Positions 2,317-59,483 of a stretch of DNA of 64,000 nucleotides are shown here, piece by piece. Position numbers and translations under genes: made by a program. The notes under the pieces are model-generated. The model made no database searches. It was not told the origin of the DNA and worked only from the letters and a program-made list of their open reading frames with translations. The first letter of the stretch is position 1; every line of letters starts with the position of its first letter. This stretch comes from Candidatus Uhrbacteria bacterium. GTDB taxonomy: Bacteria; Patescibacteriota; Patescibacteriia; UBA9934. The stretch covers positions 135,186 through 199,185 of the forward strand of contig CALRCK010000002.1 of the NCBI GenBank assembly GCA_943354605.1. The letters are read 5' to 3'.

Positions 2317-2360
2317 CATCTTCAACCCTAAGGGTTGCCCAACCCTTAGGGTTGAAGATG
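2317..2360. repeat. REP-like paired palindrome CAACCCTTAGGGTTG, copy 1 (perfect 21-bp inverted repeat)
   Basis: catcttcaaccctaagggttg-cc-caacccttagggttgaagatg. Intergenic, between scpA and the cupredoxin gene. Confidence 0.85.
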
Positions 2361-4663: not shown

Positions 4664-4730
4664 GTCATCCCCGCGCAGGCGGGGATCCAGACCGTTCTGA
4701 ATGATGGATCCCCGCCTGCGCGGGGATGAC
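4664..4730. other. perfect 25-bp GC-rich inverted repeat with a 17-nt loop
   Basis: gtcatccccgcgcaggcggggatcc...ggatccccgcctgcgcggggatgac. Lies between the asnS stop and the aspS start. Confidence 0.85.
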
Positions 4731-4740
4731 CAGAAGTGAA

Positions 4741-6048
4741 TTATGGAGTTGAGCGGCTGAGCATGCGTGGGAAGGCAATGGTTTCGCGAATGTGGTGCAC
4801 GCCAGTGATCCATCGGACCGTTCGCTCAAGACCGATGCCGAAACCGGAGTGTGGCACGCTTCCGTACTTTCGTGTGTTCAAGTACCACTCGTACTCGGCT
4901 AATGGATAATTCCGATCGATAATCTCTTTCTTAAGCGCCTCGTAACTCTCTTCACGCTGACTGCCGCCGATAATCTCGCGGCCTTCTTCTGGTGCAATAA
5001 GATCGGCGCACCTGGCGCGAAGCACGCCGGCGTCGTCCGTGTATCGCTTCATGTAGAACGATTTAATCTCCGCAGGGTAATCTTCGATAAATACCGGAAG
5101 CTGATACTTGTCGCCAAGCGCGATTTCTTCCTCCGTCGACATGTCGCCGAGGAGATCGACGGGCTCGACGGTCAGCTTCTCGTTGTGAAGAATCTTCTTC
5201 GCCTCAGAGTGCTTCAAGTGAACGAATGGTTCGTTGACGATGCGCTCCAAGATCGTCGTATCGCGCTCCAAAATCGCGAGCTCTTGTTTGCAGTTATCAA
5301 GCACGTCTTTGACGATGCGCTTCACCATCTTTTCCTGTACATCCATGTTCATCACTTGGTCGAAGTACGCCATCTCGGCGTCCATCATCCAAAGCTCGCT
5401 CAAGTGATGGCGCGTCTTGCTCTTCTCTGCGCGGAACACTGGACCAAAGTCGTACACTTTTCCAAAGCCCATAATTCCCGCTTCGCTGTAGAGCTGACCA
5501 GACTGCGAGAGATACTTTGGTTCTCCGTAGTAATCCACCTGGAACAACTGCGTGGTATCTTCGCAGCTTGTTGGCTGAATGATTGGGGTATCGAAACGAA
5601 TGAATCCTTCTTCGTGGAAAAACTGTTCGATGGAGAAAAAGACGCGATCACGAATGCGCAGCACAGCCCATGGGGTTTGCGATCGGAGATACAGATCGCG
5701 GTTGTCGAAAAGGAATTCTGGACCGTGCTCTTTCTTTCCGATTGGATAATCCTCTGGTGCAACGTGCACCATCGTGAATCCCGTTCCTTGAATTTCAAAT
5801 CCTGATGGCGAGCGCGGTTCGGCCTTTACGATTCCCTTCACAATGACAGACGACTCAAGACGAACGCCCTGCAACGACTCCCACGATGCCGCGTCGATGT
5901 CGCTTGGCGAGTACACAACCTGAACTCGCCCCGATCCATCACGGAACTGGAGGAAGTAAATTTTGCCGCTGCTTCGAAAATTGTACGCCCAGCCCTTGAG
6001 CTCAACTTCTTGCCCGACCATGGATGCTAACTGTGAAATGTAGGTCAT
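4741..6048 (-). CDS. asnS: asparaginyl-tRNA synthetase
   Basis: Class IIb. C-terminal GGSQREESYEAL...EYEWYLNTRKYGSVPHSGFGIGLER, which is AsnRS-specific. Confidence 0.8.
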   Translation of the reverse strand: MTYISQLASMVGQEVELKGWAYNFRSSGKIYFLQFRDGSGRVQVVYSPSDIDAASWESLQGVRLESSVIVKGIVKAEPRSPSGFEIQGTGFTMVHVAPEDYPIGKKEHGPEFLFDNRDLYLRSQTPWAVLRIRDRVFFSIEQFFHEEGFIRFDTPIIQPTSCEDTTQLFQVDYYGEPKYLSQSGQLYSEAGIMGFGKVYDFGPVFRAEKSKTRHHLSELWMMDAEMAYFDQVMNMDVQEKMVKRIVKDVLDNCKQELAILERDTTILERIVNEPFVHLKHSEAKKILHNEKLTVEPVDLLGDMSTEEEIALGDKYQLPVFIEDYPAEIKSFYMKRYTDDAGVLRARCADLIAPEEGREIIGGSQREESYEALKKEIIDRNYPLAEYEWYLNTRKYGSVPHSGFGIGLERTVRWITGVHHIRETIAFPRMLSRSTP

Positions 6049-6245: not shown

Positions 6246-6373
6246 TCTGTCGCCGAACTCGTTTCTGTTGTATCGATCACTGAATCTAGAAGTTGTTTGC
6301 TCCTAGCGCTCGCTGTCACCACGAACATCAGTGAAATGAGTGTAGCACGAGGGCGAGAACCATTCAAACTTCT

Positions 6374-6784
6374 TTATTCTTGGACAAAAATGATGATTTT
6401 CGCAAATCTCGCCGCAAGATCGATGATGACAGTTTCGGGATCCTGTTTTGTTGACGCGATTTCTTTTGCGAGACGATAGAGCTGACGCCAACCGATCCGA
6501 AGTTCCGCTCGATTCATGTCAAGAAAAATATACAAAATCAGCAGCGCTGAGCGCTTGTTCCCGTCAACAAAATGATGATTCTTGATCACACGATGGAAGA
6601 GTCGCGCGGAAGTAGCAAAGATGTTTCGTCCATCTGGATGCATCGCACACAGTGCGAGATCGGATTCAATAGTAGAGACCCAAACATCATCAATTACCGG
6701 GAGATACGCCTCTAAATTCGAATTCCTTTGAGCGATCTCAATCCAGAGCAACAAATCTCCTGCGCTCGGAAACAGCAACGTCAC
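6374..6784 (-). CDS. doc: Doc (death-on-curing) toxin, Fic family
   Basis: Fic/Doc motif HHFVDGNKRSALL. GTG start at 6782-6784. Confidence 0.75.
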   Translation of the reverse strand: MTLLFPSAGDLLLWIEIAQRNSNLEAYLPVIDDVWVSTIESDLALCAMHPDGRNIFATSARLFHRVIKNHHFVDGNKRSALLILYIFLDMNRAELRIGWRQLYRLAKEIASTKQDPETVIIDLAARFAKIIIFVQE

Positions 6785-11019: not shown

Positions 11020-11073
11020 AGGACTAATACAGGGGAAAGCGTACAGGATTTCACCCAAGCTCGCAACGACATT

Positions 11074-11108
11074 TCAACCCTTAGCGTTGACCGACCCTTA
11101 GGGTTGAA
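11074..11108. repeat. REP-like paired palindrome, copy 2 (opposite orientation)
   Basis: tcaacccttagcgttgaccgacccttagggttgaa. Between secY and adk, followed by a terminator hairpin. Confidence 0.8.
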
Positions 11109-13886: not shown

Positions 13887-14438
13887 TTATTCGCTCTTCG
13901 ACGCCTTACCAGCCTTACGACGAATAATTTCGTCGGTATAGCGGAAACCCTTGCCCTTGTATGGCTCAGGCTTTTTCTGTGAACGGATCTCTGCGGCGAT
14001 CTTTCCCACAAGCGCAGCATCTGCTCCGCTGATGGTCAGAACGTTCGCGTCAATCTTTGCGGTGATTCCTGCTGGCAACACGAATTTTACATCGTGAGAG
14101 AAGCCAAGAGAAAGCACAAGTGTCGTTCCCTGCACGTTCATTTTGAATCCGACACCGTTCAATTCCAGGGCTTTGACGTATCCTTCGGATACTCCCTTCA
14201 CCATCTGCGCAATGAGTGCGCGCATGGTTCCCCAAATTGCACGATCGTCGCGATCTGGATCGACGACGGTAACGTTAATCTGCGAAACACCTTCTTCGGT
14301 GGAAAGCGTTGCGGCGGCATGTGGGTGAAGCACGAGCGAAAGCTCGCCCTTTGGTCCTTTTGCGGAGACGGTGTTTCCTGCGATGGTCGCAGTCACACCG
14401 GCTGGCAAGAAGACTGGTTTTTTTCCAATGCGAGACAT
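13887..14438 (-). CDS. rplF: 50S ribosomal protein L6
   Basis: Starts MSRIGKKPV. Two repeated L6 domains. Confidence 0.9.
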   Translation of the reverse strand: MSRIGKKPVFLPAGVTATIAGNTVSAKGPKGELSLVLHPHAAATLSTEEGVSQINVTVVDPDRDDRAIWGTMRALIAQMVKGVSEGYVKALELNGVGFKMNVQGTTLVLSLGFSHDVKFVLPAGITAKIDANVLTISGADAALVGKIAAEIRSQKKPEPYKGKGFRYTDEIIRRKAGKASKSE

Positions 14439-21440: not shown

Positions 21441-21776
21441 TTACATTTTGATTTCGATGTCGACGCCAGCCGGAAGGTTCAAGCTCATGAGCGCATCAAT
21501 CGTCCGTTCCGTTGGACTCACAATGTCGATCAGGCGTTTGTGGACACGCATCTCGTACTGATCGCGAGACTGCTTGTCAATAAACGTTGAGCGGTTCACC
21601 GTGAAGCGACGAACCTCTGTTGGCAAGGGAACCGGGCCAAGAACCTCTGCTCCACTGCGCTCAGCCGTCTTGATGATGGTCTGTGTTGCGGTGTCGATCA
21701 CCTTGTGATCGTACGCACGAATCTTGATACGAATTCTCTGCTTCACGTCTTCTTTTGTTTTTGCTGCGTCGGTCAT
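21441..21776 (-). CDS. rpsJ: 30S ribosomal protein S10
   Basis: S10 family by sequence. Separated from rplC by about 315 bp of non-coding DNA. Confidence 0.9.
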
Positions 21777-21850: not shown

Positions 21851-23038
21851 TTATTCAATAATTTTTACCACGATACCTGCGCCAACCGTGCGGCCACCCT
21901 CGCGGATAGCAAAGCGCATCTTCTCTTCGAGTGCGACTGGGTTGATGAGCGTCACGATGCCGTTCACCTTGTCTCCTGGCATCACCATCTCTGTGCCTTC
22001 TGGCAAGACGATTTCACCAGTCACGTCGGTGGTACGGATGTAGAACTGTGGCTTGTAGCCCTTGAAGAATGGCTTGTGGCGTCCACCCTCTTCCTTGGTC
22101 AAGGCGTAAATTTCAGCCTCGAACTTGGTGTGTGGCTTCACGGTTCCTGGCTTTGCAAGCACCTGACCGCGCTCAACATCTTCCTTCTTCACACCGCGGA
22201 GAAGAACTCCAGCGTTGTCGCCAGCCATACCCTTATCAAGCGACTTGTTGAACATTTCGATACCAGTCACCGTGGACTTGATAGTGTCCTTGATACCGAC
22301 GATTTCGACTTCGTCACCAACAGTACAGACACCGCGCTCGATACGACCGGTCACGACAGTTCCACGTCCTTCAATAGAGAAGACGTCTTCCACTGGCATG
22401 AGGAATGGCTTGTCGAGTTCGCGCACCGGCTGTGGGATGTAGCTGTCCAATGCTGCGAGCAAGTCGCGGATTGGCTGTGCTTCTGGACCGGTTGGGTTTT
22501 CAAGTGCTTTCACGGAAGATCCGCGGATCACTGGAACGGCGTCGCCAGGGAAATCGTACTTCTTCAAAAGGTCGCGAACTTCCTGCTCAACGAGGTCGAT
22601 GAGTTCTGGATCGTCAACCATGTCAACTTTGTTCAAGTAGACGATGATCGAAGGAACACCAACCTGCTTTGCGAGAAGAATGTGCTCGCGCGTCTGTGGC
22701 ATTGGACCGTCAGCAGCGGAAACGACGAGAATCGCGCCGTCCATCTGTGCAGCACCCGTGATCATGTTCTTCACGTAGTCTGCGTGTCCTGGACAGTCCA
22801 CGTGTGCGTAGTGACGGTTTGCCGTCTCATACTCACAGTGTGCGGTCGAAATGGTGATACCACGTGCCTTGGATTCTGGCGCCTTGTCGAGGTCGTTAAT
22901 ACCCTTCTTTTGCGCGGTGTTTCCCATTGCAGCAGCCACTGCCAAAATTGCAGCGGTTGTGGTGGTCTTCCCGTGGTCGACGTGACCAATGGTGCCGACG
23001 TTCACGTGCGGCTTTGTGCGGTCAAACTGTTCTGCCAT
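21851..23038 (-). CDS. tuf: elongation factor Tu
   Basis: GHVDHGKTT and DCPGHADY G-domain motifs. Full-length EF-Tu. Confidence 0.95.
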
Positions 23039-23165
23039 ACGAAGAAATTATGCGGGCATTCCGTGTGCGGAATACTCAGCGAGTGAGTGAGAGTTTCGGT
23101 AAATAAATGTGGCGAGAGTGTAGCAAAACCAGGAAAATCACGCAAGTCCGCTTATGCACGGCGGG

Positions 23166-23645
23166 CTAATCGATCTGTTCAAGGTAGAACTCTTCCTCCC
23201 CTCCTTCGCTCCGACTTGACTTCTTTTTGACGACTTCCCGAGGCTTTTCGACATTTTTCTCTTGCTCCTGTGTTTTGGGCACCTCTACCGGCGCCTGCCA
23301 AAGACTCTTCAGCGCCTCCTCGTCGATATCCGCCTCGTCGAAAGCCTCATCCGTAACCTCAGCGGCGATTTCTTCGGACAGCTCGATCATCGCCTCAGCC
23401 TCCTCCTCAACCCCACTCATAGGCGCCCCCGACCTCGCCCGACCATCGCCATACACCGGCAAATCAATCCCCTCATCGCTAAATGTCCCCTCCCCAGGCC
23501 CAAACGCCTGATCGATAAGCGCTTCGTACTCCTCCAGCGGCAAAATCACCATTGGCTCGCCTCCCCCAGCCTCGTCCGTCACAATCAGCCGATCGCCCGT
23601 TCTCCGGGCCAACCGCAACAGTCGAGGAATGTGATTGATCGCCAT
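23166..23645 (-). CDS. hypothetical acidic protein
   Basis: About 160 aa with a very D/E-rich C-terminal half. The N-terminus (RLIVTDE...PMVILPLEEYEAL) weakly resembles Phd/YefM-like folds. No adjacent toxin gene. Confidence 0.4.
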   Translation of the reverse strand: MAINHIPRLLRLARRTGDRLIVTDEAGGGEPMVILPLEEYEALIDQAFGPGEGTFSDEGIDLPVYGDGRARSGAPMSGVEEEAEAMIELSEEIAAEVTDEAFDEADIDEEALKSLWQAPVEVPKTQEQEKNVEKPREVVKKKSSRSEGGEEEFYLEQID

Positions 23646-23791
23646 ATGCAGCCATCTTAGGAAGTGTGGGAGCAAAGGGCAAGGGGCGTTAGAGCTTTTT
23701 TGGACTTTTCTTCTAGAAAATGCTAAAATGTTTGGTCCGATCTCAAACCGGCCTCAGGCCAAGGAAGTGACTCGTGCGTTTTCCTCAAATC

Positions 23792-24037
23792 ATGAACCTC
23801 CTCGTGGCCATCGCCGGCTTCCTGAACGCCGGCGGGATCGCCCTACAGGCCGCGCAGATCCTCTAAACCCGGGACGTCAGCGGGATCTCGCTTCCGATGT
23901 TCTGCATGTTCCTATTCATCCAGATCATTTACGCCATCCGGGGAATGCAGAACAAGGACATGATGATGGCACTCGGGATGTGCGCATCTGCGATCGCGAA
24001 CATCACGGTCATGCTCCTCGTCCTCACCTACCGCTAG
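23792..24037 (+). pseudogene. SemiSWEET/PQ-loop-like small membrane protein interrupted by an in-frame TAA
   Basis: Reads MNLLVAIAGFLNAGGIALQAAQIL*TRDVSGISLPMF...VMLLVLTYR. That is three hydrophobic helices with an (L/P)Q-loop motif, typical of SemiSWEET, with a TAA at 23864-23866 where a Lys or Gln codon would be expected. Confidence 0.35.
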
Positions 24038-24157
24038 CTCGCCCCGCGCGAAATCGACAAGCCCCAACTCGGGAGCCCGTCGTCTCGACGCGGGGTTTGT
24101 CGTTGACGCACAGCGCCGAACCTCCGTAAGAGATTCGGCGCGCGTCGGACGTCGTGA

Positions 24158-24193
24158 TTCAACCCTTAGGGTTGGTCAACGCTAAGGGTTGAC
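24158..24193. repeat. REP-like paired palindrome, copy 3
   Basis: ttcaacccttagggttggtcaacgctaagggttgacc. Intergenic. Confidence 0.8.
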
Positions 24194-24197
24194 CAAT

Positions 24198-24530
24198 CTA
24201 GATCAGCCCGAGGAGGTGCTCGGCCACGGTGCAGACATAGTGGCAGAGCTGGTCCTGCCAGATGGTCTTGATCACCTGCTTGCCCTTCAGCTCGTCCACC
24301 GTGGCGTGGAGCGCCATGTGGATGAGAAGTCCGTACCACGTGATGTGGAACCCGGGCACCGCCGCGAGGAGCATGAACGGGCTCGCCTGCGTCACGACGT
24401 GGTAGAACAGCACTTCCTTGCTCTTCGCCTTCTCCATCGCCATCCACGCGCTCTGGAACGCGAAGTCGCCGATGTTGTGGCACGCGAAAAGGACTGTGAG
24501 GTACTGCCAGAGTTCGAGCGGACTGGTCAT
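24198..24530 (-). CDS. hypothetical small membrane protein
   Basis: About 110 aa with three hydrophobic segments and a conserved-looking HNIGDF...HxxxH pattern. Start trimmed to the ATG at 24528-24530. Confidence 0.4.
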   Translation of the reverse strand: MTSPLELWQYLTVLFACHNIGDFAFQSAWMAMEKAKSKEVLFYHVVTQASPFMLLAAVPGFHITWYGLLIHMALHATVDELKGKQVIKTIWQDQLCHYVCTVAEHLLGLI

Positions 24531-24688
24531 GGAACACCTCCTGTGTTGAGTGTCCGCTGTGAGTATCTGTCCACAACCACAATGTGCCGAGAGCATCTGT
24601 CGTCATGCACGACGACAGTAATTGCGCATCTGTCGTCCATCACGACAACACATTGACTTCTGCTCTCTGCACGCTATCGTAATGATGT

Positions 24689-25450
24689 ATGCATATGTCC
24701 TCTTCAAAGGAACTCAATCGCGCACTCGTCGCGTTTGGATTTGACGAGAAGGAAGCGCATCTGTACCTCGCCGGCATTGAGCTTGGCGAAGCAACGGTGC
24801 TTGAGCTTTCGCGGCTCACAAAACTTCCGCGCACAACGCTGTATCCAGTTCTTGAAAGTTTGTGCCGGCGTGGATATTTCCGATTAAAAAATTTGCAAGG
24901 ACGAAAAAAGTTCGTCGCAAACCCTCCTGATTTGTTCATCAAGCATCTCGCCGACCGCCAAGAAAAATTTCGTGAAATTCTTCCGCTCTTCGAAGCGATC
25001 AAAGCAAACGATCCCGAATCCGTCGGCGTCACCATCTACGAAGGCACTGAGGGATTCAAACAATTCTGGCAACAAATCTTCCGCTCCGGCGTAAAGGAAT
25101 ATTGTTTGCTCACCACCGGCGTGCACATGCTCGACTACGTCAAAGAACCGTATCTCATGAAGCAAATTATTGCCGAGCGCATGAAACGCGGAATCCGCAG
25201 CCGTCAACTCATCATCGAAACCGCAGAATCAAGAAAATTTATTCGACGTGATTCCATCGAGCTTCGCGAATCACGGTTCCTCCCACCAAATATCAATATC
25301 CCTGCAACAATGTTACTGTTCGGCAACGACGTCGCATTCGTCACCACCCGTAAAGAAAACTCCGTGATCCTTGTCACGAGTGGTGATGTTTCGGTGACAC
25401 TTCGCACGATGTTCGAACTTCTGTGGAGCTGCGCAAAATCGACGACATAA
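24689..25450 (+). CDS. TrmB-family transcriptional regulator
   Basis: N-terminal winged HTH (LYLAGIELGEATVLELSRLTKLPRTTLYPVLESL) followed by a TrmB-like C-terminal domain. Confidence 0.65.
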   Translation: MHMSSSKELNRALVAFGFDEKEAHLYLAGIELGEATVLELSRLTKLPRTTLYPVLESLCRRGYFRLKNLQGRKKFVANPPDLFIKHLADRQEKFREILPLFEAIKANDPESVGVTIYEGTEGFKQFWQQIFRSGVKEYCLLTTGVHMLDYVKEPYLMKQIIAERMKRGIRSRQLIIETAESRKFIRRDSIELRESRFLPPNINIPATMLLFGNDVAFVTTRKENSVILVTSGDVSVTLRTMFELLWSCAKSTT

Positions 25451-25491
25451 CAAAAACAAAATCGACGCCGAAGTCGATATTTGTAGAAAAC

Positions 25492-26331
25492 TTACAACAA
25501 AGATCGCTTAATAGCTGCCGCTTCCTCTTCCTCTTCTCTCAGCTTTGCGACCCGAATCGCCTCTCGCCGAGCCTTCTCCGTATGAATCTTTTCATCATTT
25601 TCTTGCGCGACTTCGGCAGCAAGCCGTTGTTGTGTTATTGGATTCTCAAGAATATTAGCGGAAACATCAAACTTAGCTTTATTCAAAATTTGGATAGTTT
25701 TTGAAGATTCTTCAATCAACTTTTCTGAATATTCGATATCAAGCTGATTTGAAGGTGTTCCCTTGAAATTTTTTTGTTCGCTTAAAATACTACGAGTTCT
25801 TGTTAAGTTTTCAGTCGCCGCTTCTAATGCAACGTTTATCATTGGCAAAAGTTCTGCTCCAAAAGTTTTATAGACCTCTTCATAATCAAGCTCCACAAAC
25901 GCTTCAGCAAGTATGTACCCGCCTTGGCTCGTTTCAAGCGCTCGTTCCGCACGATCCATATCAGCGCCCCGTCCATGTAAGCCTTTATCAAAATTGTCTA
26001 CCATGTTCTGAACGACTTCGCTCAAGTCATAATATCTTTCACCCCTCCACGAAGATCCATCCTCCCGTCCTTCAATTGCCTTCTTTTTCGCAGCCTTCTG
26101 AGCAAGCTCAGTCCAACCCGTAAGTAAAAAACCATCACGAAGTGCCCTGCCTACCTCTTGCATATTCTTATCTTGTTTCGCCTTCATGCCTTCCTGTCGC
26201 GCTCTCACAATACCCCCAACTAGTGAACCCTGCTCCTCAATTTCAGCGCTAGAAAGTGGAACCTTCCTTCCTACAAATGTATTTCCAGTCTCCGTTTCGA
26301 TTTTGTCGATAACGATTTTGTCAAACTTCAT
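25492..26331 (-). CDS. hypothetical protein (AT-rich, about 279 aa)
   Basis: Coherent ORF ending in a coiled-coil-like K/E-rich C-terminus. No recognisable motifs. GC clearly below the local average. Confidence 0.5.
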   Translation of the reverse strand: MKFDKIVIDKIETETGNTFVGRKVPLSSAEIEEQGSLVGGIVRARQEGMKAKQDKNMQEVGRALRDGFLLTGWTELAQKAAKKKAIEGREDGSSWRGERYYDLSEVVQNMVDNFDKGLHGRGADMDRAERALETSQGGYILAEAFVELDYEEVYKTFGAELLPMINVALEAATENLTRTRSILSEQKNFKGTPSNQLDIEYSEKLIEESSKTIQILNKAKFDVSANILENPITQQRLAAEVAQENDEKIHTEKARREAIRVAKLREEEEEAAAIKRSLL

Positions 26332-26457
26332 AAATACAATCAAAATACTTCGACTTATCTTTCATCAATTATCATCCATGTAAGCCTTTGCAGCAAAAGG
26401 GATTGGGGATAACAAAACGAGCTCAATGCGAGCTCGTTTTGTATTGGAACGATGTAT

Positions 26458-28545
26458 TTATTTTCCCTGACGCGCTTCGACGATGGTCTTTTGCACGTTC
26501 GTTGGCACTTCCATGTACTGACCGAACTCCATGGAGTAGCTTGCGCGTCCTTGGGTCATCGATCGGAGCGATGTGGAGTAGCCAAACATTTCTGCAAGTG
26601 GAACAAGAGCTTTCACGAACTTGATATTTCCGCGGTCGCCCATTTCCTGAATCTGTCCGCGCTTTCCGTTCAAGTCGCCGACGACGGATCCCATGAATTC
26701 GTCTGGAGTAACCGCTTCCACCTTCATCATTGGCTCAAGCAACACTGGTTTTGCGTTCTTGACGGCTTCCTGGAATGCCATGCTTCCTGCCATCTTGAAG
26801 GCTGCTTCGTTGGAGTCCACATCGTGGTAGCTTCCGTCGAACACCGTCACCTTGATGTTGATGAGTGGGAATCCAGCAATCGCACCGCGATCCATGGATT
26901 CACGCGCACCTTTTTCAATGGCTGGAATGTATTCGCGAGGAATGGATCCACCCTTTGTTTCTTCAAAGAACTCGAAGTTCTTTGCGTCTTCGCCGGTGTT
27001 TGGCTCCACACGCAACCAGCAGTGTCCGTACTGACCACGTCCACCAGACTGCTTGATGTACTTTCCTTCGCCTTCTGCCGCAGCACGAATCGTTTCGCGG
27101 TACGCAACTTGTGGGCGACCCACGTTTGCTTCCACGCCGTATTCGCGCTTCATGCGGTCCACCATAATTTCCAAGTGGAGTTCTCCCATACCAGCGATAA
27201 TCGTCTGGTTGGAATCGGCATCCGTGTGCACGTGGAATGTTGGATCTTCTTCCTTAAGCTTCTGCAGCGCAACACCCATCTTTTCCTGGTCAGCCTTTGT
27301 CTTTGGCTCAAGTGCTTGAGAGATAACCGGCTCTGGGAAGGTAATGGATTCAAGAATCACTGGATGATCCGCGTCGCACAACGTGTTTCCCGTTGTGGTA
27401 CTCTTCAAACCAACGGCTGCGGCGATTTCTCCAGCAAACACCTCCTCAACGTCCTCGCGGCTGTTTGCGTGCAAACGGACGATACGAGAAATACGCTCCT
27501 TGTCTCCAGTGGTGGTGTTCAACACGTATGTTCCCGCCTTGATCGATCCTGAGTACACACGGAAAAACGCGAGCTTTCCAACGAATGGATCTGCCGCAAT
27601 CTTGAAGGCGAGTGCCGCAAACGGTGCGTCGTCCTTTGGTGGGCAGGCGATGAGCTCTTCGTGATCGTCTGGATTGAATCCGGTGATTGGTGGGACGTCG
27701 AGTGGCGATGGCAAGTAGTCCACAACTGCGTCGAGCATCTGCTGAACGCCTTTATTCTTCAAGGCAGAGCCGCAAAGAATTGGGAAGATTTTCAACGAGA
27801 CCACCCCCTTACGAAGCGCAACCTTCAGTTCTGGAACAGGAATTTCTTCGCCGGCAAAGAAGCGGTCGAGCAATGCCTCGTCTTCTGCGACGATCGCCTC
27901 AACCAAGTTCTTGCGATATTCGTCTGCCTTTTCTTTGTACTCGTCTGGAATTTCGATTTCGTCGACCACCTTGCCCATGTCGTCCTTATAGATGAACGCC
28001 TTGCGCAAGAGCAGGTCGATGATTCCGACGAAATTACTCTCGGTTCCGATTGGCAACTGAATTGGATATGCGTTTGGTGCCAAGCGCTTCCGGATGGAAT
28101 CAACGTCTTTGTAGAAGTCGGCACCGGTACGATCGAGCTTGTTGATGAAACACACGCGAGGAACTTTGTACTTGTCGGCCTGATGCCAAACCGTCTCAGA
28201 CTGTGGCTCCACGCCAGCAACGCCGTCGAACACGGTTACGCCGCCGTCGAGCACACGAAGCGAGCGCTCCACTTCCACGGTAAAGTCCACGTGGCCAGGG
28301 GTGTCGATGATATTAATACGGTGATCCTTCCAGAAACACGTGGTCGCAGCAGCCGTAATGGTGATACCGCGCTCCTGTTCCTGCTCCATCCAGTCCATGG
28401 TTGCTTCACCTTCATGCACTTCACCGATCTTGTGCTTCTTACCAGTGTAGTACAACACGCGCTCCGTTGTGGTGGTCTTTCCCGCATCGATGTGCGCAAT
28501 GATTCCGATGTTCCGAACCCGTTCCAATGGATAATCACGTTGCAT
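26458..28545 (-). CDS. fusA: elongation factor G
   Basis: Starts [35 protein letters not shown]. Five-domain EF-G. The track's N-terminal extension was trimmed because it reads across a repeat element. Confidence 0.95.
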
Positions 28546-28591
28546 AAGAAAAAAATGTAGACGTTTGAGAAGAATGACAAAGAGTTTTCTG

Positions 28592-28700
28592 TTTGCGACG
28601 AGTTTCGATGCGCGGCGAGCGAAGCTTCCGAGACGTACTTCTCGGTACGTTGAGGAAGTTCGCGATGGCGCAAGTCGAAAATCGGCCAAACAGGAAAGCC
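28592..28700. repeat. structured about 110-nt dispersed repeat, copy A (between rpsG and fusA)
   Basis: Shares ...AGTTTCGATG...GAGACGTAC-loop-GGTACGTTGAG...AAGTCGAAAATCGGCCAAA with five other loci. Outer stem gcgaagcttcc/ggaagttcgc. Confidence 0.8.
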
Positions 28701-28702
28701 GT

Positions 28703-29170
28703 CTATCGGGCCAAGTGAGCGAACGCACGGTTAGCCTCAGCCATACGCTGCACATCGAGTTTCTTCTTCACTGCATCGCCTTCGTTCTTGCTTGCTGCAA
28801 TCAATTCTTCCGCAAGCTTCTCGCACATTGGGCGACCCTTCTTTCCGCGAGCCGCCACGAGAATCCAGCGATACGCCAACGCATACCGACGATCGCCACG
28901 CACTGGCATTGGCACCTGGTAGTTTGCACCACCAACGCGCTTCGATTTTACCTCAACTGCTGGAGTGACGTTCTTGATTGCGGTGTCGAAGACTTCCAAT
29001 GGATCTGCCTTTGTTTCTTCCGCAATAATGTCGAATGCATCGTACACAATGCCGCGAGCGATGCTCTTCTTTCCACTTTCCATGACGTAATTGACTAACT
29101 TGGCAACCAAAACGCTCCCGTATTTTGCATCAGGAGCGAGATTGCGCTTTGGAGCGGCTTTACCACGCAT
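28703..29170 (-). CDS. rpsG: 30S ribosomal protein S7
   Basis: Starts [18 protein letters not shown]. Confidence 0.9.
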
Positions 29171-29384: not shown

Positions 29385-29822
29385 TTATTTCTTTTTTACG
29401 GCGCCTTTCTTTGGGCGCTTGGTTCCGTACACCGAACGGCTGCGGTTGCGACCTTCAACGCCGGAAGCGTCGTACCGACCGCGGACGATGTGGTAGCGAA
29501 CACCTGGCAAGTCCTTCACACGTCCGCCACGGATCATGACGATAGAGTGCTCCTGAAGGTTGTGACCTTCACCTGGAATATATGCGGTGACTTCCGTACC
29601 GTTCGAAAGACGGACACGAGCCACTTTACGCAAAGCCGAGTTTGGCTTTTTTGGAGTCATGGTAGTGACCTTCACACAAACGCCACGCTTGAATGGTGCG
29701 CCCTTGCGAAGGATGGTTTTCTTGCGGTGCAAGGAATCCAACGTGTACTGCATCGCAGGCGAAGCACTCTTGTTCTTCGCTTTTGTGCGACCCTTTCGGA
29801 GAAGTTGATTGATTGTTGGCAT
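29385..29822 (-). CDS. rpsL: 30S ribosomal protein S12
   Basis: Starts [12 protein letters not shown] and contains KKPNSALRK, with a C-terminal basic tail. Confidence 0.95.
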
Positions 29823-29979: not shown

Positions 29980-30411
29980 ATGCCCGATCATAACCCCGTT
30001 CACGTCGCCGTCGAAACCATGATGGCGGCCCAAAAGCTCTCCCAGAGCGCTGTCGCACAAAAAACCGGCATCCATCGGAACTTCATCATCGATATCCTCA
30101 GGGGGAAGGTTCCGAGGGTACGCGATGGCGCGAAGTTCGCCGACGAGGACCCGCGCTATGCCAAGCTCGCAGCCGGCCTCGGCCTGGATGTCGCGCCATT
30201 CGTGGCAATGGCCAAACGCGAACAACAACGCCGTGCCCGGGCGACGCCAGAAAGCGAAGAATCTCGGGAAACGGGAGTGAAGCGAACACGGACGGGCGGG
30301 ATCTCGGTGCATATCTCCGGTTCAACACTCGAGTTGACAAACGTCGTCCTCGCCTTCGATATCCCCGAGGGCCGGGTGACGATCAGCATCCAGCCTCATC
30401 CGAAGCCATGA
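29980..30411 (+). CDS. putative HTH (XRE-like) DNA-binding protein
   Basis: HTH-like segment LSQSAVAQKTGIHRNFIIDILRGK. GC-rich. Start trimmed to MPDHNPVH. Confidence 0.4.
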   Translation: MPDHNPVHVAVETMMAAQKLSQSAVAQKTGIHRNFIIDILRGKVPRVRDGAKFADEDPRYAKLAAGLGLDVAPFVAMAKREQQRRARATPESEESRETGVKRTRTGGISVHISGSTLELTNVVLAFDIPEGRVTISIQPHPKP

Positions 30412-30468: not shown

Positions 30469-30506
30469 TTTCAACCCTTAGGGTTGGTCAACGCTAAGGG
30501 TTGGCC
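30469..30506. repeat. REP-like paired palindrome, copy 4
   Basis: ttcaacccttagggttggtcaacgctaagggttggcc. Between the HTH gene and the M50 protease gene. Confidence 0.8.
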
Positions 30507-43346: not shown

Positions 43347-43372
43347 CTAAGTTAGTCCCAAACTTAGTTTAA
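43340..43372. repeat. tandem 13-bp palindrome array (2 units) between the convergent rarA and ABC exporter stops
   Basis: gactaactaagttag-tcc-caaacttagttta. Overlaps the rarA TAA. Confidence 0.7.
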
Positions 43373-45139
43373 TTTCTGTTTTTCCCAAAGCTCGAAGAAC
43401 CGACCGCGTTTGTTGTACAGATCGGTAAATGATCCCGATTCGATGATGCGGCCACCTTCAAGCACAAGAATGCGATCCATTTCCTTAATTGTCGTGAGTC
43501 GATGAGCAATAACAAGAGCGGTGACATTCTTAAAGAAGACATGAAGTGAATCCTGGATCTTTTCTTCGGATTCTACATCGAGATGCGACGTTGCTTCGTC
43601 GAGGAACAGCACGTCCGGCTCTTTGAACACGGCTCGAGCGATTCCGACGCGCTGGCGCTCACCACCAGAAAGCTTTACCCCCTTCTCACCAATCGCAGTC
43701 TCGACACCATAGGGTAATCGATAGAGGAACGAGGTGACGTGCGCGATGTTTAACGCCTTCTCGAGCGCTGCGTCGTCGTTCTTCTTTGGATTTGCGAGAA
43801 GAATATTCTCACGCAGTGAAAGGTTGAACACTTCGGTTTCCTGCAACACGACCGTCGCCTTTTGGTAATACGAGCTCTTCTTAATCGATCGCAAAGGCAC
43901 GTCATCTACGAGAATCTCACCAGTGTAATTTTCGTTTTCTTTCAGCAACAACTTAAACAGCGTCGATTTCCCTGCGCCAGATAATCCAACGAGCCCAAGA
44001 CGCTCGCCGCGATGCAGATCAAACGAAATATTGTGCAGTACCTCATCTCCGCCGTAGGAAAACGAAAGATTCCGCACGGAAATTATTTTCCAATCTTTGG
44101 GAAAATTCCGCGTTGCGTCGCGACCATCGAGGAACGATTCAATACTCAACAATTCTTGCATGCGCGCAACAGCAAGCTTTTGCATAATAAAGTCCTGAAC
44201 GGTGTCTGAAAAACTTGATGCACAGTCAATAACACGCCCAAAATAAAAGTTGAAGATAATGAGGAAACCTACGCCATACGTACCGCGGAGAATTCCAAGC
44301 GCAATCACAAGAACCACAACCATGCGGAAGGTAATAGAGTACGCGCTCAGCACAACAGCCTGACTCTGAAAACGATAAATCCGCTCTTGTACACGGTTAA
44401 AAACATCGTTCGCGGCTCCCTGAACGCGGCCCATCAATCCAGCGCTCATATTCAACACCTTGACGGTACGAATGTTATTCACCCCCTCAAACATCACACC
44501 ATTGAGCTCTTCTTCCTTCGCATTGACCTGCTGCGCAGCAATGCGCGCCTTCTTGATTAATTTTTGATTGATTGCAATGTACGACAACAAAAATATTGCT
44601 GTCACAGCGGCGATAAATCGATCGGTGATACCAATCATCACCACGGTTCCAATAAAAATGACGATCATCTCAATGGTGCCATTAATCCAAATCCGCATGA
44701 GTCGATCGATGGCGTCACCACCACGATCGAGACGCTTCAATTTATTCCCCGCATTTTCACGCTCGTGCCACGCCATGTCGAGCGCAAAAAGCTTTGTCAT
44801 CGACGCATTCTTTGCATCCAACGCAGCACGCTCTCCAGCTCCAAAACCATACTTTCGTGCAAAATACTGACCGAATATTTTGAGAATCATTGACACCACC
44901 CAACCCGCAAACAACCACCAAAGCATCGTCAATGGCTCCCCCGCCTTCCACGACACGCAAAAGGTGAGAATCGTCGCAAGAACCCATGCGGGATACAACC
45001 ACGCAACATCTGAGATAAAACGTGATGCTGTTCCAAGAATCACTTTACCTTTATACGGCGAAAGAAAATGCCACACATCTCGAAAGAGCTGTGTGGTGGT
45101 GTAGTTTTTCTCGAAGACCTGTTCTTTTGTATCGGTCAT
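43364..45139 (-). CDS. ABC transporter, fused permease/ATP-binding (MsbA-like exporter)
   Basis: Six-helix transmembrane domain, Walker A GLSGAGKST, LSGGERQR signature, Walker B LFLDEATS. Start trimmed to MTDTKEQ because upstream track sequence crosses a repeat. Confidence 0.85.
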   Translation of the reverse strand: MTDTKEQVFEKNYTTTQLFRDVWHFLSPYKGKVILGTASRFISDVAWLYPAWVLATILTFCVSWKAGEPLTMLWWLFAGWVVSMILKIFGQYFARKYGFGAGERAALDAKNASMTKLFALDMAWHERENAGNKLKRLDRGGDAIDRLMRIWINGTIEMIVIFIGTVVMIGITDRFIAAVTAIFLLSYIAINQKLIKKARIAAQQVNAKEEELNGVMFEGVNNIRTVKVLNMSAGLMGRVQGAANDVFNRVQERIYRFQSQAVVLSAYSITFRMVVVLVIALGILRGTYGVGFLIIFNFYFGRVIDCASSFSDTVQDFIMQKLAVARMQELLSIESFLDGRDATRNFPKDWKIISVRNLSFSYGGDEVLHNISFDLHRGERLGLVGLSGAGKSTLFKLLLKENENYTGEILVDDVPLRSIKKSSYYQKATVVLQETEVFNLSLRENILLANPKKNDDAALEKALNIAHVTSFLYRLPYGVETAIGEKGVKLSGGERQRVGIARAVFKEPDVLFLDEATSHLDVESEEKIQDSLHVFFKNVTALVIAHRLTTIKEMDRILVLEGGRIIESGSFTDLYNKRGRFFELWEKQKLN

Positions 45140-45175
45140 AGAAGAAATGATATCAGAAATGACTTTGGCGCTTTT

Positions 45176-45300
45176 ATTCGCGACCAGTTTCGATGAAGAT
45201 CGAGGAAAGCTTCTGAGACGTACTTCTTGGTACGTTGAAGAAGTTTCCGATGATCTGAATCGAAAATGGGCCGAAGAAATGCGCCAAAAGGAAAGCCGGC
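45176..45300. repeat. structured about 110-nt dispersed repeat, copy B (upstream of the ABC exporter)
   Basis: Same family. Outer stem ggaaagcttct/agaagtttcc is compensatory relative to copy A. Confidence 0.8.
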
Positions 45301-45620
45301 CGAGCTCTAGATGCAACTGACACCCCTTCGTAAGAGGTCGCCATCTGGTGTTGCAACGAACTCGGCCGGACAGTACCGCGCGTGATGCCATGAGACCGCT
45401 CCCCAGTGGTCTGTACATTCGACGCCGCGCGCGACGTGGTAGCCCATTACTGACTGGGCAAAAAGGACGGGTCCTTCAATCGTCTCGGAACCTGAGGTTG
45501 AAAGGAAGTTCAAAGCCGCAACGAGAGACCCGCTCGTTGAGCCTATCAAATATCGCCAATCCCCTCAAACCGCAAGCCCCGAGGTTTTCCCCCGGGGCTC
45601 CGTAGCGTTTGTGCTGCCTG

Positions 45621-46160
45621 TCAACGGTCCCGATACTCCGCGAGGAGCACCGCCGCCGCCCCCACAGCGTCTACCATGGTGTATGCCTCGTGAAGGCTCC
45701 CGTAGCCGAAGCCGCGGCGGACGACGTCCTCCAGGAGCACGCGAAGTGCTGCGAACTCCACGCGGTCCACCAGGATGATGGGCCGATCCGCGGGAATCTG
45801 CCCAAGAAGCTTCCGTGAAATCACGTCGAGCACCTCGAACATCGTTCCGATGCCGCCGGGCAGCGCCACGTAGGCGTCGCCCAGGTCGATGAGCATCTTC
45901 TGCCGAAGCGCGAGTTCGTCGAACTCCACGCGTTCCGTGAACGCGTTGTGCCCGGGCGGGTAGCGCTCCGCATTTAGGAGCACGCCGTGCACCTGACCGC
46001 CAGCTTCCATGGCGCCCTCGCACAGCGCACGCATCATGCCAGGGCCACCACCGTTCACGCAGGTGAATCCAGCGCCGGCAAGGATGCCGCCGAAGTGTCG
46101 CGCAGTCCGAAGGTGGAAGGGACTAGAGGGAGAAGATCCGCAGAACACCGTTACACGCAT
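45621..46160 (-). CDS. LOG family protein (cytokinin riboside 5-prime-monophosphate phosphoribohydrolase-like)
   Basis: Contains GGGPGMM and PGGIGTMFE motifs. GC-rich. Confidence 0.7.
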   Translation of the reverse strand: MRVTVFCGSSPSSPFHLRTARHFGGILAGAGFTCVNGGGPGMMRALCEGAMEAGGQVHGVLLNAERYPPGHNAFTERVEFDELALRQKMLIDLGDAYVALPGGIGTMFEVLDVISRKLLGQIPADRPIILVDRVEFAALRVLLEDVVRRGFGYGSLHEAYTMVDAVGAAAVLLAEYRDR

Positions 46161-55971: not shown

Positions 55972-56027
55972 ATTGCGTATAGTATAGCAAAAAAGAAAAC
56001 GACCTCCAAAAAGAGAGATCGTGTTCT

Positions 56028-56102
56028 GGTGCACCGGGCGGGATTCGAACCCACGACCAAGTGATTAAGAGTCACCTGCTCTACCGCTGAGCTACCGATG
56101 CA
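56028..56102 (-). tRNA. tRNA-Lys (anticodon CTT)
   Basis: Manual fold of GCATCGG acceptor, GCTC/GAGC D-stem, GGTGA-CTCTTAA-TCACT anticodon arm, TTCGAAT T-loop and encoded CCA. Confidence 0.8.
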
Positions 56103-56109
56103 TGGTTGA

Positions 56110-56215
56110 ACTTCCTCATTTCGCCCATTTTCGACTTGCTCCTCGACGATATCGACGACGTACCGAGAAGTACGTCTTGACGATCCCGTCTTCGTCGCGC
56201 ACCGAAACTGGTCTG
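56110..56215. repeat. structured about 110-nt dispersed repeat, copy D (opposite orientation, between the two tRNAs)
   Basis: Reverse complement matches the family (ttcgcccattttcgacttgc...cgtaccgagaagtacgtct...gcgcaccgaaactgg). Confidence 0.7.
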
Positions 56216-56302
56216 AAATGAGAGCGTTCAACGCCAGCAATGATGCACAATTTTTTGACCCGGGTCAAGAAAACGAGTACTATTGCGTCGTTCAGTGGAT
56301 AT

Positions 56303-56379
56303 GCGGGCATAGCTCAGTTGGATAGAGCATTTGGCTTCGAACCAAAGGGTCGGGGGTTCGAGTCCCTCTGCTCGCACCA
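56303..56379 (+). tRNA. tRNA-Arg (anticodon TCG)
   Basis: Manual fold of GCGGGCA acceptor, D-arm GCTCAGTTGGATAGAGC, anticodon loop CTTCGAA, T-loop GGTTCGAGTCC and encoded CCA. Followed by a terminator hairpin. Confidence 0.8.
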
Positions 56380-57945: not shown

Positions 57946-57971
57946 AAACGATATTTATAGGATTTCTTTAT

Positions 57972-58072
57972 TTGCGACAAATTTGGGTGCGCGACGAGAA
58001 AAGCTTTCGAGACGTACGTATTGGTACGTTGAGAAAGTTTTCGATGTCGCAAGGCCAAAGTTGGCCAAATAA
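57972..58072. repeat. structured about 110-nt dispersed repeat, copy E (upstream of rpmF, bordering the GC-rich islet)
   Basis: Same family. Outer stem gaaaagctttc/gaaagttttc is compensatory. Confidence 0.8.
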
Positions 58073-58142
58073 AGGAATCCGTGAATGCGCAAAGAGTAGC
58101 CAAATATCCAATTGACGTCAAGCCAGAAATAGGGCTATTCTC

Positions 58143-59483
58143 TTGCACCGGCGCAACCGCGCAGGCAGCAAGAAACCCAGAAACCCGGACATTCCCGTGA
58201 TCGACCCGACCGAACGCCGTTCCCCGCTCTTCACCACACTCCTCCCCACCTCGCTCTACGCGGTTCTCGCCAACGTCGATGCGAACGGCAATCTGCCGTC
58301 CGCAGACAGCGGCGGCACCCAGGGCGGCGTCATCTTCCTCCCGGACGGGAACTGCGAGGCCCTCGGGACGAACCTCTGGATCGTCCGCCACGGCACGCGC
58401 CACGTTCCGGAAGGGAAAACGCTCCAGATCTACGCGCCGGGCAACCACCTGGCGAAGGAGATCGGCGGGAACGCGGAGCAGAACCCGTGGTTCGACCAGT
58501 ACGGGGCGCCCTCGCTCGTGGTGTCCGCATTCGAATCCGGTATCACCGGCGCGGACCGCGCCATGGCGCAGGCCATGGCGGACGAGCTCAGCGACATCGA
58601 ATACATGCACGCACTCGACGCGTGCAGCAACGAGATGCTGGCGCATGCGCTCTACACCGACCTACGCGAGCACGTGTCGCTCGAGGAACACCTCGCGAAC
58701 ATCCACGAACTCGAAGGGTTCGCGGACGCGAGCAGTGGCACGATGGGCGACGAGATCCGCGAGTTTCTCGTCGCGATGCGCAATCCGCGCGACAAGATCG
58801 GCCGCTACAACGTGTACCGCAAGGTGCTCATCGTGCGCGCCGTTCAGCGTCGGGCCAAGGGCATCGTGACGGACAAACTCGATCGCGTGCAAGAAATCGT
58901 CGCGGCCCAGAACGCCACGGCGATGTACATCGGCGACGTGGAGCGTTTGGCCGGACGTGCCGCAAGCGTGCTCACCGACAAGCAGCCGTGGTGGACGAGC
59001 AACGGCATCCTGCCGAGCGTCGATCAACACATGCGCCGCAAGTTCGCGAACCGCCTGCGGGGCTACGTGGCCAGTCTCGAATGCATCTACGCCAACCCGT
59101 TCCGTCCGTGGGCAGCCCTCGCGGCGTACCGCATGAACGCGATGGTGATGGGGCTGGAGACGGACCGCTTCCAGGACATCGGCTCCAACTCCGATCACGC
59201 CCGGGGGTACCTGCAGGCGATGCGCGTCCAGGAACGCGTGTCGCGGGGGGTCATGTCGGTTCGGCAAGACGGTGGCATGAGCGCGGCGCATGACGCGCTC
59301 GCTCACGCCATCGACTGGTCGCTGCAGACAGCACCTCGCCTGCGCATCTCCACCGCGAACGTGCGAGAGATCGTTCATGAGAGCCAGGTTGGGCAGCGTA
59401 CCGGGTCCAAGGCGCGGCGGATCGAGGCCTTGCGCAACGTAGAGTGGAACCTGATGGCCGTTGGCGTCGCGCACGCGGCGTAG
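58143..59483 (+). CDS. hypothetical protein encoded in a very GC-rich islet (about 67 percent GC)
   Basis: It is the only frame with protein-like composition across 58.1-59.5 kb. No recognisable motifs. The listed start is TTG; the true start is uncertain (GTG at 58197 or later). Confidence 0.45.
   Translation: MHRRNRAGSKKPRNPDIPVIDPTERRSPLFTTLLPTSLYAVLANVDANGNLPSADSGGTQGGVIFLPDGNCEALGTNLWIVRHGTRHVPEGKTLQIYAPGNHLAKEIGGNAEQNPWFDQYGAPSLVVSAFESGITGADRAMAQAMADELSDIEYMHALDACSNEMLAHALYTDLREHVSLEEHLANIHELEGFADASSGTMGDEIREFLVAMRNPRDKIGRYNVYRKVLIVRAVQRRAKGIVTDKLDRVQEIVAAQNATAMYIGDVERLAGRAASVLTDKQPWWTSNGILPSVDQHMRRKFANRLRGYVASLECIYANPFRPWAALAAYRMNAMVMGLETDRFQDIGSNSDHARGYLQAMRVQERVSRGVMSVRQDGGMSAAHDALAHAIDWSLQTAPRLRISTANVREIVHESQVGQRTGSKARRIEALRNVEWNLMAVGVAHAA

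Follow-up and report, generated by a model that had tools for sequence, protein, structure and literature searches.

We analysed a stretch of 64,000 nucleotides (nt) of a metagenome-assembled Candidatus Uhrbacteria genome (Patescibacteria; contig CALRCK010000002.1), hereafter called the window, and report here on the interval between fusA and tuf, the genes for the elongation factors EF-G and EF-Tu. This interval runs from 23039 to 26457, exactly 3,419 bp, within a minus-strand gene series. It contains an acidic protein beside tuf, which we call X, a divergent pair of genes for a TrmB-family regulator and a DUF3307 membrane protein, and two slots, between fusA and TrmB (slot A) and between DUF3307 and X (slot B), whose contents differ among relatives. 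An earlier note on the window had described the whole interval as an accessory insertion of about 3.4 kb. A 3,419-bp gap with flexible cargo is indeed there, but its variable part comes to only 2.7 kb, and the acidic protein belongs to the backbone. The open reading frames (ORFs) listed for the gap in that note are all present where it placed them. From the rpsL side to the rpsJ side, the features are as follows (GC3, G+C content at third codon positions).

29385-29822, minus strand: rpsL.
28703-29170, minus strand: rpsG.
26458-28545, minus strand: fusA (EF-G, 695 aa), which closes the rpsL-rpsG-fusA unit and is the left backbone anchor.
26412-26442, minus strand: intrinsic-terminator-like hairpin 3′ of fusA, with a 13-bp stem between an A-tract (5′) and a U-tract (3′).
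25492-26331, minus strand: 279-aa orphan ORF in slot A, AT-rich (GC3 0.37) and helical.
25461-25478, no strand assigned: hairpin between the convergent ends of the 279-aa and TrmB genes, a terminator-like site on the minus strand.
24689-25450, plus strand: TrmB-family winged-helix regulator (253 aa), divergent from DUF3307.
24593-24651, no strand assigned: two copies of GCATCTGTCGTC in the divergent TrmB/DUF3307 intergenic region (160 nt).
24198-24530, minus strand: DUF3307 small membrane protein (110 aa, GC3 0.93).
24158-24193, no strand assigned: doublet of palindromes (CAACCCTTAGGGTTG / CAACGCTAAGGGTTG) like repetitive extragenic palindromic (REP) sequences, in slot B between the SemiSWEET-like frame and DUF3307.
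23792-24037, plus strand: SemiSWEET-like frame in slot B, 81 codons, GC3 0.89, interrupted by TAA at 23864-23866.
23654-23682, minus strand: promoter-like block of X, with TTGCCC (23677-23682), 17 nt, and TAAGAT (23654-23659), ending 8 nt before the ATG.
23166-23645, minus strand: X, the acidic protein (159 aa, pI 4.2, 25% D+E), backbone.
23117-23145, minus strand: promoter-like block of tuf, with TTGCGT (23140-23145), 17 nt, and TGC-TACACT (-10 at 23117-23122).
21851-23038, minus strand: tuf (EF-Tu, 395 aa), the right backbone anchor, followed by rpsJ and the S10 cluster.
21441-21776, minus strand: rpsJ.

Through homologues of the 279-aa protein, X, and TrmB, we found seven related genomes (L083, L090, L092, L174, L176, L178, and L180). 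They share with the window a wider backbone of ComEC, NDK, EPSP synthase, M50 peptidase, rpsL, rpsG, and fusA, and then tuf and S10; where fusA is covered, their EF-G is 83%-98.6% identical to that of the window. The window EF-Tu has best matches of only 72%-78% identity among 185,579 species genomes scanned, the top ones mostly from Parcubacteria, Magasanikiibacteriota, Kaiserbacteria, and unnamed Patescibacteria, with many unrelated phyla also returned.

The limits of the variable DNA are sharp. Backbone DNA homology to L083, L090, and L092 stops at window positions 26404-26411 and resumes at 23684-23686. The variable islet therefore occupies 23686-26403 (2.7 kb) and reaches from the fusA terminator-like hairpin to the -35 element of the X promoter-like block. 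Between these limits, the eight genomes of the clade have eight different contents between fusA and X:

Window: slot A, the 279-aa orphan; slot B, the REP doublet and a SemiSWEET pseudogene.
L083: slot A, higB, higA, a 268-aa homologue of the orphan, and a 347-aa protein; slot B, a 163-aa lipoprotein-like protein, a 91-aa protein, and a REP doublet.
L174: slot A, nothing; slot B, a 327-aa protein.
L176: slot A, a 179-aa protein, a low-molecular-weight phosphatase (LMWPc), a 346-aa protein, and an aminoglycoside-nucleotidyltransferase-like protein; slot B, two small ORFs.
L178: slot A, a 94-aa protein; slot B, nothing.
L180: slot A, an RHH protein and proteins of 85, 272, and 116 aa; slot B, a 133-aa protein.
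L090, without the TrmB/DUF3307 pair: a 123-aa protein, a P-loop kinase, and a GNAT-like protein.
L092, without the TrmB/DUF3307 pair: a 234-aa protein and a nucleotidyltransferase.

The sharing of cargo among these genomes is reticulate. The 347-aa protein of L083 is 85% identical to the 346-aa protein of L176, the 123-aa protein of L090 is 72% identical to a 130-aa protein of L176, and a 364-aa protein of L092 is 63% identical to a 380-aa protein of L176. This pattern is consistent with differential loss combined with strain-to-strain exchange. The same space between fusA and X is independently used for unrelated genes in distant lineages: L003 has two pilin-like proteins there, and L099 a NUDIX hydrolase and a surface protein of 962 aa. 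The 5.6 kb upstream of X in L007 contain no fusA, with trmD and enolase located farther upstream. In all three of these loci X and tuf remain together.

Part of the interval is much more stable than the slots. The divergent TrmB/DUF3307 pair lies in the fusA-tuf gap of six of the eight clade genomes (the window, L083, L174, L176, L178, and L180), and the order of TrmB, DUF3307, and X is kept by relatives whose EF-G identity is as low as 83%. TrmB identities to the window of 90%, 85%, 84%, 72%, and 62% stand against EF-G identities of 95.5%, 92.7%, 94.2%, 89.4%, and 83.2%, respectively; this broad tracking argues for vertical descent of the pair. A divergent TrmB/DUF3307 pair is also found beside polA in an Uhrbacteria genome, with a TrmB identity of 52%. 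The pair is thus an old two-gene module that settled in the fusA-X spacer in the ancestor of the clade and was lost or replaced in L090 and L092. The comparison suggested in the earlier note consequently gives a divided answer: Three of the five genes in the gap (TrmB, DUF3307, and the acidic protein) recur in the same order in relatives, whereas the slot cargo differs between them.

The TrmB-family protein matches PF01978 over residues 15-80 (39.9 bits; cut-off, 25.6). The match is confined to the N-terminal part, and the protein lacks the full-length sugar-sensing TrmB architecture, its scores against the NCBIfam models TrmB, TrmBL1, and TrmBL2 being 14-22 bits against cut-offs of 500-650. 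DUF3307 matches PF11750 (40 bits; cut-off, 23) and phrog_2470 ("membrane protein"). It adjoins TrmB in L083 (12871-13203), L174 (7510-7842), L176 (7512-7841), L178 (7508-7834), L180 (7505-7840), and a further locus, L181 (4347-4682); in L176 it had been missed by the gene caller and was recovered by tblastn. In L083, the TrmB/DUF3307 intergenic region shows 83% conservation and an additional unit of the repeat. Each of the two window copies of GCATCTGTCGTC, the only matches to it in the 64 kb, begins a palindrome, CTGTCGTC-N6-GACGACAG at 24597-24618 and an imperfect one at 24630-24651. These palindromes are a likely TrmB operator, and not a REP sequence. What the earlier note called a REP copy, between DUF3307 and TrmB, is this GCATCTGTCGTC palindrome pair; the REP doublet of the gap lies at 24158-24193.

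The composition of the interval is strongly heterogeneous, as had been noted before. The 63 nonoverlapping ORFs of the window have a mean GC3 of 0.572 (SD = 0.075). The 279-aa ORF has the lowest value of all (0.37), and DUF3307 (0.93) and the SemiSWEET-like frame (0.89) both exceed every other ORF (maximum, 0.87); in 400-nt windows, the GC minimum of the entire 64 kb (38.8%) is in the window starting at 25450. A mosaic of GC-high and GC-low subsegments is thus borne out by both measures. However, DUF3307 is an outlier in every relative as well: Its GC3 is 0.68-0.93 in all seven genomes that carry it, whatever their overall GC, including a 40%-GC Uhrbacteria genome in which it is not near tuf. 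Since the gene is GC3-rich everywhere, its composition is a property of the gene and no sign of recent import, and composition is not diagnostic at this locus. The proposal that the mosaic reflects more than one acquisition is thus only partly upheld. The pieces do differ in history, so that more than one event is needed, but the high GC of DUF3307 implies no separate acquisition for that gene. More generally, odd composition inside a ribosomal and elongation-factor cluster of a genome of the candidate phyla radiation (CPR) does not by itself mean recent transfer. We also note that DUF3307 is GC3-rich even in a genome whose divergent TrmB has a GC3 of 0.30, and that its high GC3 produces long spurious ORFs in other frames or on the other strand, which are sometimes annotated in its place (in L176 and in one assembly of the L083 lineage). 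ORFs of 146 and 155 aa overlying DUF3307 in the window were rejected as by-products of this kind.

The gene next to tuf is of a different nature from the cargo. In five distant Patescibacteria loci, the N terminus of X gives weak but collinear tblastn matches, always next to tuf on its upstream side. The X ORFs at these loci have in common an N-terminal motif, (K/R)TGDR(I/L)(I/V)-x9-12-(M/L)-x3-YE, a central W-x-I-P, and a C-terminal acidic xx(Y/F)(L/F)E motif. A profile search extends the family to 528 clusters, all annotated as hypothetical and without a Pfam domain; wherever the organism is named, it belongs to a Patescibacteria lineage. With a subfamily alignment and two peptide patterns of one subfamily, we retrieved 80 metagenome loci of X. 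Downstream from X, tuf lies within 800 nt in 56 of the 57 loci whose downstream sequence reaches 800 nt or more; upstream, fusA lies within 800 nt in 51 of the 54 loci that extend for 1 kb or more on that side (median spacers on the two sides, 102 and 132 nt).

The order fusA-X-tuf is therefore standard where the X family exists, and X is a conserved backbone gene rather than cargo. Since the acidic protein is X, the variable segment measures 2.7 kb and not 3.4 kb. The premise that fusA normally lies directly upstream of tuf is accordingly wrong for this lineage, and the Escherichia coli operon rpsL-rpsG-fusA-tuf is the wrong null model for this phylum.

The AlphaFold2 model of X, based on a 107-sequence alignment, has a confident alpha-beta-beta-alpha arrangement at residues 1-50 (predicted local distance difference test [pLDDT] 78-89), and the acidic remainder is disordered. 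In a Foldseek comparison with the Protein Data Bank (PDB), the top three matches are YefM and Phd proteins (probability 0.80-0.95; root-mean-square deviation [rmsd], 2.0-4.7 Å; E, 0.4-0.8; ∼47-54 columns). The N-terminal domain is thus predicted to resemble the Phd/YefM fold of type II antitoxins (PF02604; structures 2a6q, 3hry, and 6l8e): Residues 1-50 superpose with an rmsd of ∼2 Å over 47 columns, and a long disordered C-terminal region is likewise common to both. At the sequence level, PF02604 matches at E ≤ 0.01, below the cut-off, occur in 39 of the 107 family members; for the window member, the score is 22.6-22.7 bits (cut-off, 29.8). The X family profile finds only a chance-level match among PDB sequences, and none to any solved antitoxin.

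We do not assign X to the Phd/YefM antitoxins. In addition to the low score, the protein lacks the first beta-strand of the fold, and its tail is much longer and acidic and carries conserved motifs of its own (W-x-[IA]-P and [DE][DE]xx[YF][LF]E). Family members come from Patescibacteria only, and no toxin gene was found adjoining X, whose neighbors are tuf (in 56/57 loci) and fusA (in 51/54 loci), tuf being the constant one.

What X does can be addressed only tentatively. The X-tuf linkage survives both relocation of fusA and insertion of genes upstream, and this tight linkage argues for a functional coupling of X with tuf. It is possible, although we would not rate it as probable, that X is a translation-linked factor of a large part of the Patescibacteria, a dimeric Phd/YefM-like protein that would repress the X and tuf-S10 promoters or whose tail would bind EF-Tu or the ribosome. 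As far as we could find, no such factor has been described in the literature. Doc, the classical partner of Phd, is an EF-Tu kinase, which is a lead only. Patescibacteria are already known for unusual ribosomes, and X, an unannotated family with hundreds of members within one of the most conserved gene neighborhoods of bacteria, is a candidate for a lineage-specific component or regulator of their translation apparatus. It is the most interesting by-product of this analysis.

The edges of the islet coincide with signals that may be transcriptional. The hairpin 3′ of fusA folds with −19.8 kcal/mol (z = −8.4; none of 200 shuffled sequences folds as well) and is kept in L083, L090, L092, L174, and L176. 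At the other edge, the X promoter-like block is kept in L083, L090, L092, L176, L178, and partly in L180, and the sequence upstream of it is unrelated. The block before tuf is near-invariant across the seven clade genomes compared, with variation at the flanking positions. Both blocks were detected by alignment only. Judged from sequence, the hairpin would act as a terminator and the blocks as promoters, which suggests three transcription units: rpsL-rpsG-fusA, X, and tuf-S10. Because of the hairpin after fusA and the conserved promoter-like block before tuf, tuf is probably independent of read-through from fusA in this clade. The cluster thus appears split in three, a unit that ends with fusA, X by itself, and a tuf-S10 unit; of the two junctions, the first is the one that tolerates cargo.

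Some minor features of these spacers can be added. The X -10 element ends 8 nt before the ATG, so that an X mRNA started there would be leaderless. In the tuf leader (23039-23165, minus strand), a hairpin of 8 bp, AUUCCG-CACA-CGGAAU, is conserved ∼20 nt upstream of the start codon, and no purine-rich Shine-Dalgarno sequence is obvious by eye before the tuf ATG. The spacer between X and tuf contains no terminator-like structure; it folds no better than its shuffles (z = −0.1), and a terminator or large leader structure in this spacer was therefore dropped from consideration.

Taken together, we consider it quite probable that the fusA-tuf interval is a flexible islet of a known kind, made of three layers of different age. 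The oldest layer would be X, with its Phd/YefM-like N-terminal domain, as backbone across a large part of the phylum. The second would be the TrmB/DUF3307 pair with its palindromic intergenic repeats, which appears to have entered the fusA-X spacer in the ancestor of the clade, with vertical descent since. In the third, the contents of the slots fusA/TrmB and DUF3307/X would keep changing as one to four small genes are gained, lost, or replaced. Because the islet lies exactly between the fusA terminator-like hairpin and the X promoter-like block, it may be viewed as a spacer between transcription units, where extra DNA would leave the expression of essential genes undisturbed. As to the route of turnover, we infer recombination between strains after DNA uptake, anchored in the conserved flanks, together with deletions and the activity of REP sequences and REP-associated tyrosine transposases (RAYTs). 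The islet flanks have 87%-90% nucleotide identity between these genomes and are suited as anchors for homologous recombination, and a ComEC-type competence gene lies ∼7.5 kb from the islet in the window.

Both the setting and the proposed route have precedents. For groundwater Patescibacteria, natural competence and numerous small genomic islands, with transfer involving tuf and rpsL, have been reported (PMC12455944). Points in common with our locus are the phylum, the small size of the islands, transfer mostly within the phylum, comEC as the proposed route, and the flagging of translation genes, tuf and rpsL among them, in acquired regions. That study, however, predicts islands by composition over whole metagenome-assembled genomes (MAGs) and does not include this locus, its shared breakpoints, or X, whereas comparative synteny shows here that part of the DNA of odd composition (DUF3307) is old. 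In Proteobacteria, small multigene insertions occur between concatenated translation operons (PMC6735719); as here, a few unrelated genes lie between collinear conserved translation units, at a terminator/promoter junction, and the flanking order is kept. The present junction differs in that in E. coli it would fall within one operon (rpsL-rpsG-fusA-tufA), in that the lineage is Patescibacteria, and in that none of the eight clade genomes has the slot empty, while its contents change from one close relative to another. A precisely bounded and recurrently used slot in an otherwise invariant region offers, through its conserved flanks, anchors for tracking strain-level gene flux in metagenomes.

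Several points weigh against the flexible islet as we describe it. The X family is not universal, and none was seen upstream of tuf in Kaiserbacteria, Saccharibacteria, Gracilibacteria, and Campbellbacteria loci. The 80 metagenome loci of X come from one subfamily and include some near-duplicates, so that independent support is weaker than the counts of 56/57 and 51/54 imply. With 7-8 of 12 positions, the promoter-like blocks are poor matches to the E. coli consensus and were missed by a consensus scan, and it is their conservation only that argues for a promoter role. All relatives are metagenome assemblies, in which strain mixtures could blur junctions. Finally, the cargo of L176 is a near-superset of that of its relatives, so that differential loss alone could explain much.

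This last point leads to the alternative that survives best, although we think it unlikely: a purely ancestral islet, large in the ancestor of the clade, from which all differences arose by deletion and decay and none by acquisition. L176 does hold homologues of cargo found singly in L083, L090, and L092; the SemiSWEET gene is decaying; and genome reduction is typical of Patescibacteria. Yet L176 lacks counterparts of the 279-aa family, the SemiSWEET-like frame, higBA of L083, the 327-aa protein of L174, and the kinase and GNAT-like protein of L090. The 279-aa gene and the SemiSWEET-like frame are, moreover, the compositional extremes of the window, REP doublets in these loci are limited to the window and L083, and distant lineages hold unrelated genes in the same slot.

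More doubtful still is the opposite reading, close to the earlier one, in which the entire 3.4 kb, including the acidic protein, is accessory DNA that entered a contiguous fusA-tuf junction in two or more recent insertions. The strongly mosaic composition would agree with it, as would the fact that fusA and tuf adjoin in Saccharibacteria and in many non-CPR bacteria, and several gap genes are missing from L090 and L092, the two relatives with the most similar backbone. It is contradicted for three of the five gap genes: by the acidic gene, which stands beside tuf in 56 of 57 family loci and is included in the backbone homology, by the synteny of TrmB/DUF3307 down to 62% identity, and by a DUF3307 that is GC3-rich everywhere.

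That a self-mobile element (an integrative island, a transposon, or a prophage remnant) targets the fusA-tuf spacer site-specifically seems to us improbable. The same breakpoints recur in several genomes, DUF3307 matches a family of phage "moron" membrane proteins, the L083 lineage has a RAYT-type transposase with REP sequences, and toxin-antitoxin pairs (higBA and RHH) occur in the islets of relatives. However, none of the eight islets was found to encode an integrase, a recombinase, or a transposase; in the window, searches of the gap ORFs against Pfam, PHROGs, and PADLOC gave no mobility gene, and the last two matched nothing beyond the phage "membrane protein" family for DUF3307. No direct repeats were found bracketing 23686-26403, and the islet is not at a tRNA gene (the only window tRNAs are at 56027-56379). 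Scans of viral contigs with the 279-aa protein, DUF3307, and a repaired SemiSWEET sequence, three genes of the gap, were all empty. The coincidence of the breakpoints with a terminator-like hairpin and a promoter-like block would instead be explained by selection on expression.

An assembly artefact, that is, a chimeric join in a MAG whose composition changes abruptly, is very improbable, since an ENA contig (k141_36444), identical to the window over the whole gap including the TAA of the SemiSWEET-like frame, and a Logan contig (ERR5863123), identical from fusA through DUF3307, reproduce the junctions exactly, and relatives from other samples show the same scaffold.

Turning to the cargo of the window itself, the 279-aa protein has no match in Pfam, NCBIfam, PADLOC, or PHROGs. 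A collection of 5.8 billion proteins contains a single homologue, at 52% identity, and an exhaustive HMMER search found two other representatives among 1.84 billion proteins. The 52%-identical homologue is the 268-aa protein that occupies the same slot in L083. An AlphaFold2 model built from two sequences (mean pLDDT, 75) predicts a conserved N-terminal beta-hairpin followed by long helices, and a Foldseek comparison of this model with solved folds returns only generic helical bundles and designed proteins. The family searches proposed for the 279-aa and acidic proteins thus yield nothing for the first and, for the second, only the PF02604 match below the cut-off (22.6 vs. 29.8 bits).

The SemiSWEET-like frame is a pseudogene. 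Its 81 codons, with three predicted helices, align end to end with the solved SemiSWEET transporters 4x5m and 4qnc. It departs from them in the premature TAA, at codon 25, where the solved proteins have R or M, in the change of the PQ motif to LQ, and in scores far below the family cut-offs (27 vs. 80 bits for NCBIfam SemiSWEET_2; 17.8 vs. 23.7 for MtN3_slv). The frame is absent in all seven relatives. The earlier description of a GC-rich SemiSWEET-like ORF with an in-frame stop holds for both the stop (23864-23866) and the composition (GC3 0.89). Reassignment of the stop codon was rejected, since other genes of the window are full-length under translation table 11 and the PQ motif is degraded as well; we know of no TAA reassignment in bacteria. 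A 164-aa ORF (23635-24129) overlying the frame has no family match and is presumably an out-of-frame gene-calling artefact of the high GC3.

The REP-like doublet in slot B is one of four in the window (2321-2356, 11073-11108, 24158-24193, and 30470-30505). In L083, two doublets, at 4707 and 5279 (region 4698-5364), flank a Y1_Tnp (PF01797) gene at 4751-5311 that carries the HUH-type motif NHFHF, in a RAYT-like arrangement; a third, at 14311-14346, is inside the fusA-tuf islet of L083. The L083 Y1_Tnp site corresponds to a window spot that holds only the doublet at 30470. No REP doublets are present in the sequenced loci of L090, L092, L174, L176, L178, and L180. These elements resemble REP/RAYT systems, which are described mainly in Proteobacteria, in being 15-nt palindromes arranged as doublets, dispersed in intergenic DNA and, in L083, flanking a Y1_Tnp gene. 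They differ in that the 64 kb of the window are without a RAYT gene, tblastn finding no Y1_Tnp gene there.

A second repeat, the structured repeat reported upstream of fusA ("copy A"), is real. It is a hairpin element of ∼120 nt with four copies in the window, at 28575-28700 (minus), 45160-45285 (minus), 57954-58079 (minus), and 56108-56233 (plus). Three copies lie just upstream of fusA, of the L32 gene (57682-57945), and of tRNA-Arg; the fourth lies within the 5′ portion of an ORF of 684 aa (43364-45418). The structure predicted by RNAalifold is built around a perfect ACGTAC-N6-GTACGT core and has 42 pairs, and at 21 of these the four copies show compensatory double changes. No Rfam family matches the element at the gathering threshold. 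In L083, a copy (6332-6433) is located between rpsL and rpsG instead.

Three further observations concern variability beyond the islet. Two other GC3-rich ORFs lie in GC-rich patches of the window, at 58143-59483 (plus strand; GC3 0.87) and 45621-46160 (minus strand; GC3 0.77), and these could represent additional islets or repeat the anomaly seen in DUF3307. In one Patescibacteria genome (L008, 8658-11185), tuf directly follows rpoA and rplQ, with which the alpha operon ends, and not fusA or X; the position of tuf relative to the ribosomal clusters therefore varies across the phylum. Finally, the interval between M50 peptidase and rpsL, immediately upstream of the latter, is a second variable slot. 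L178 has nothing there, L090 a Ham1-like gene, L174 a dCMP deaminase, L180 a radical-SAM protein and a 117-aa ORF, L083 the RAYT gene and a 95-aa ORF, and the window a GC-rich HTH_3-like ORF (29980-30411, plus strand).

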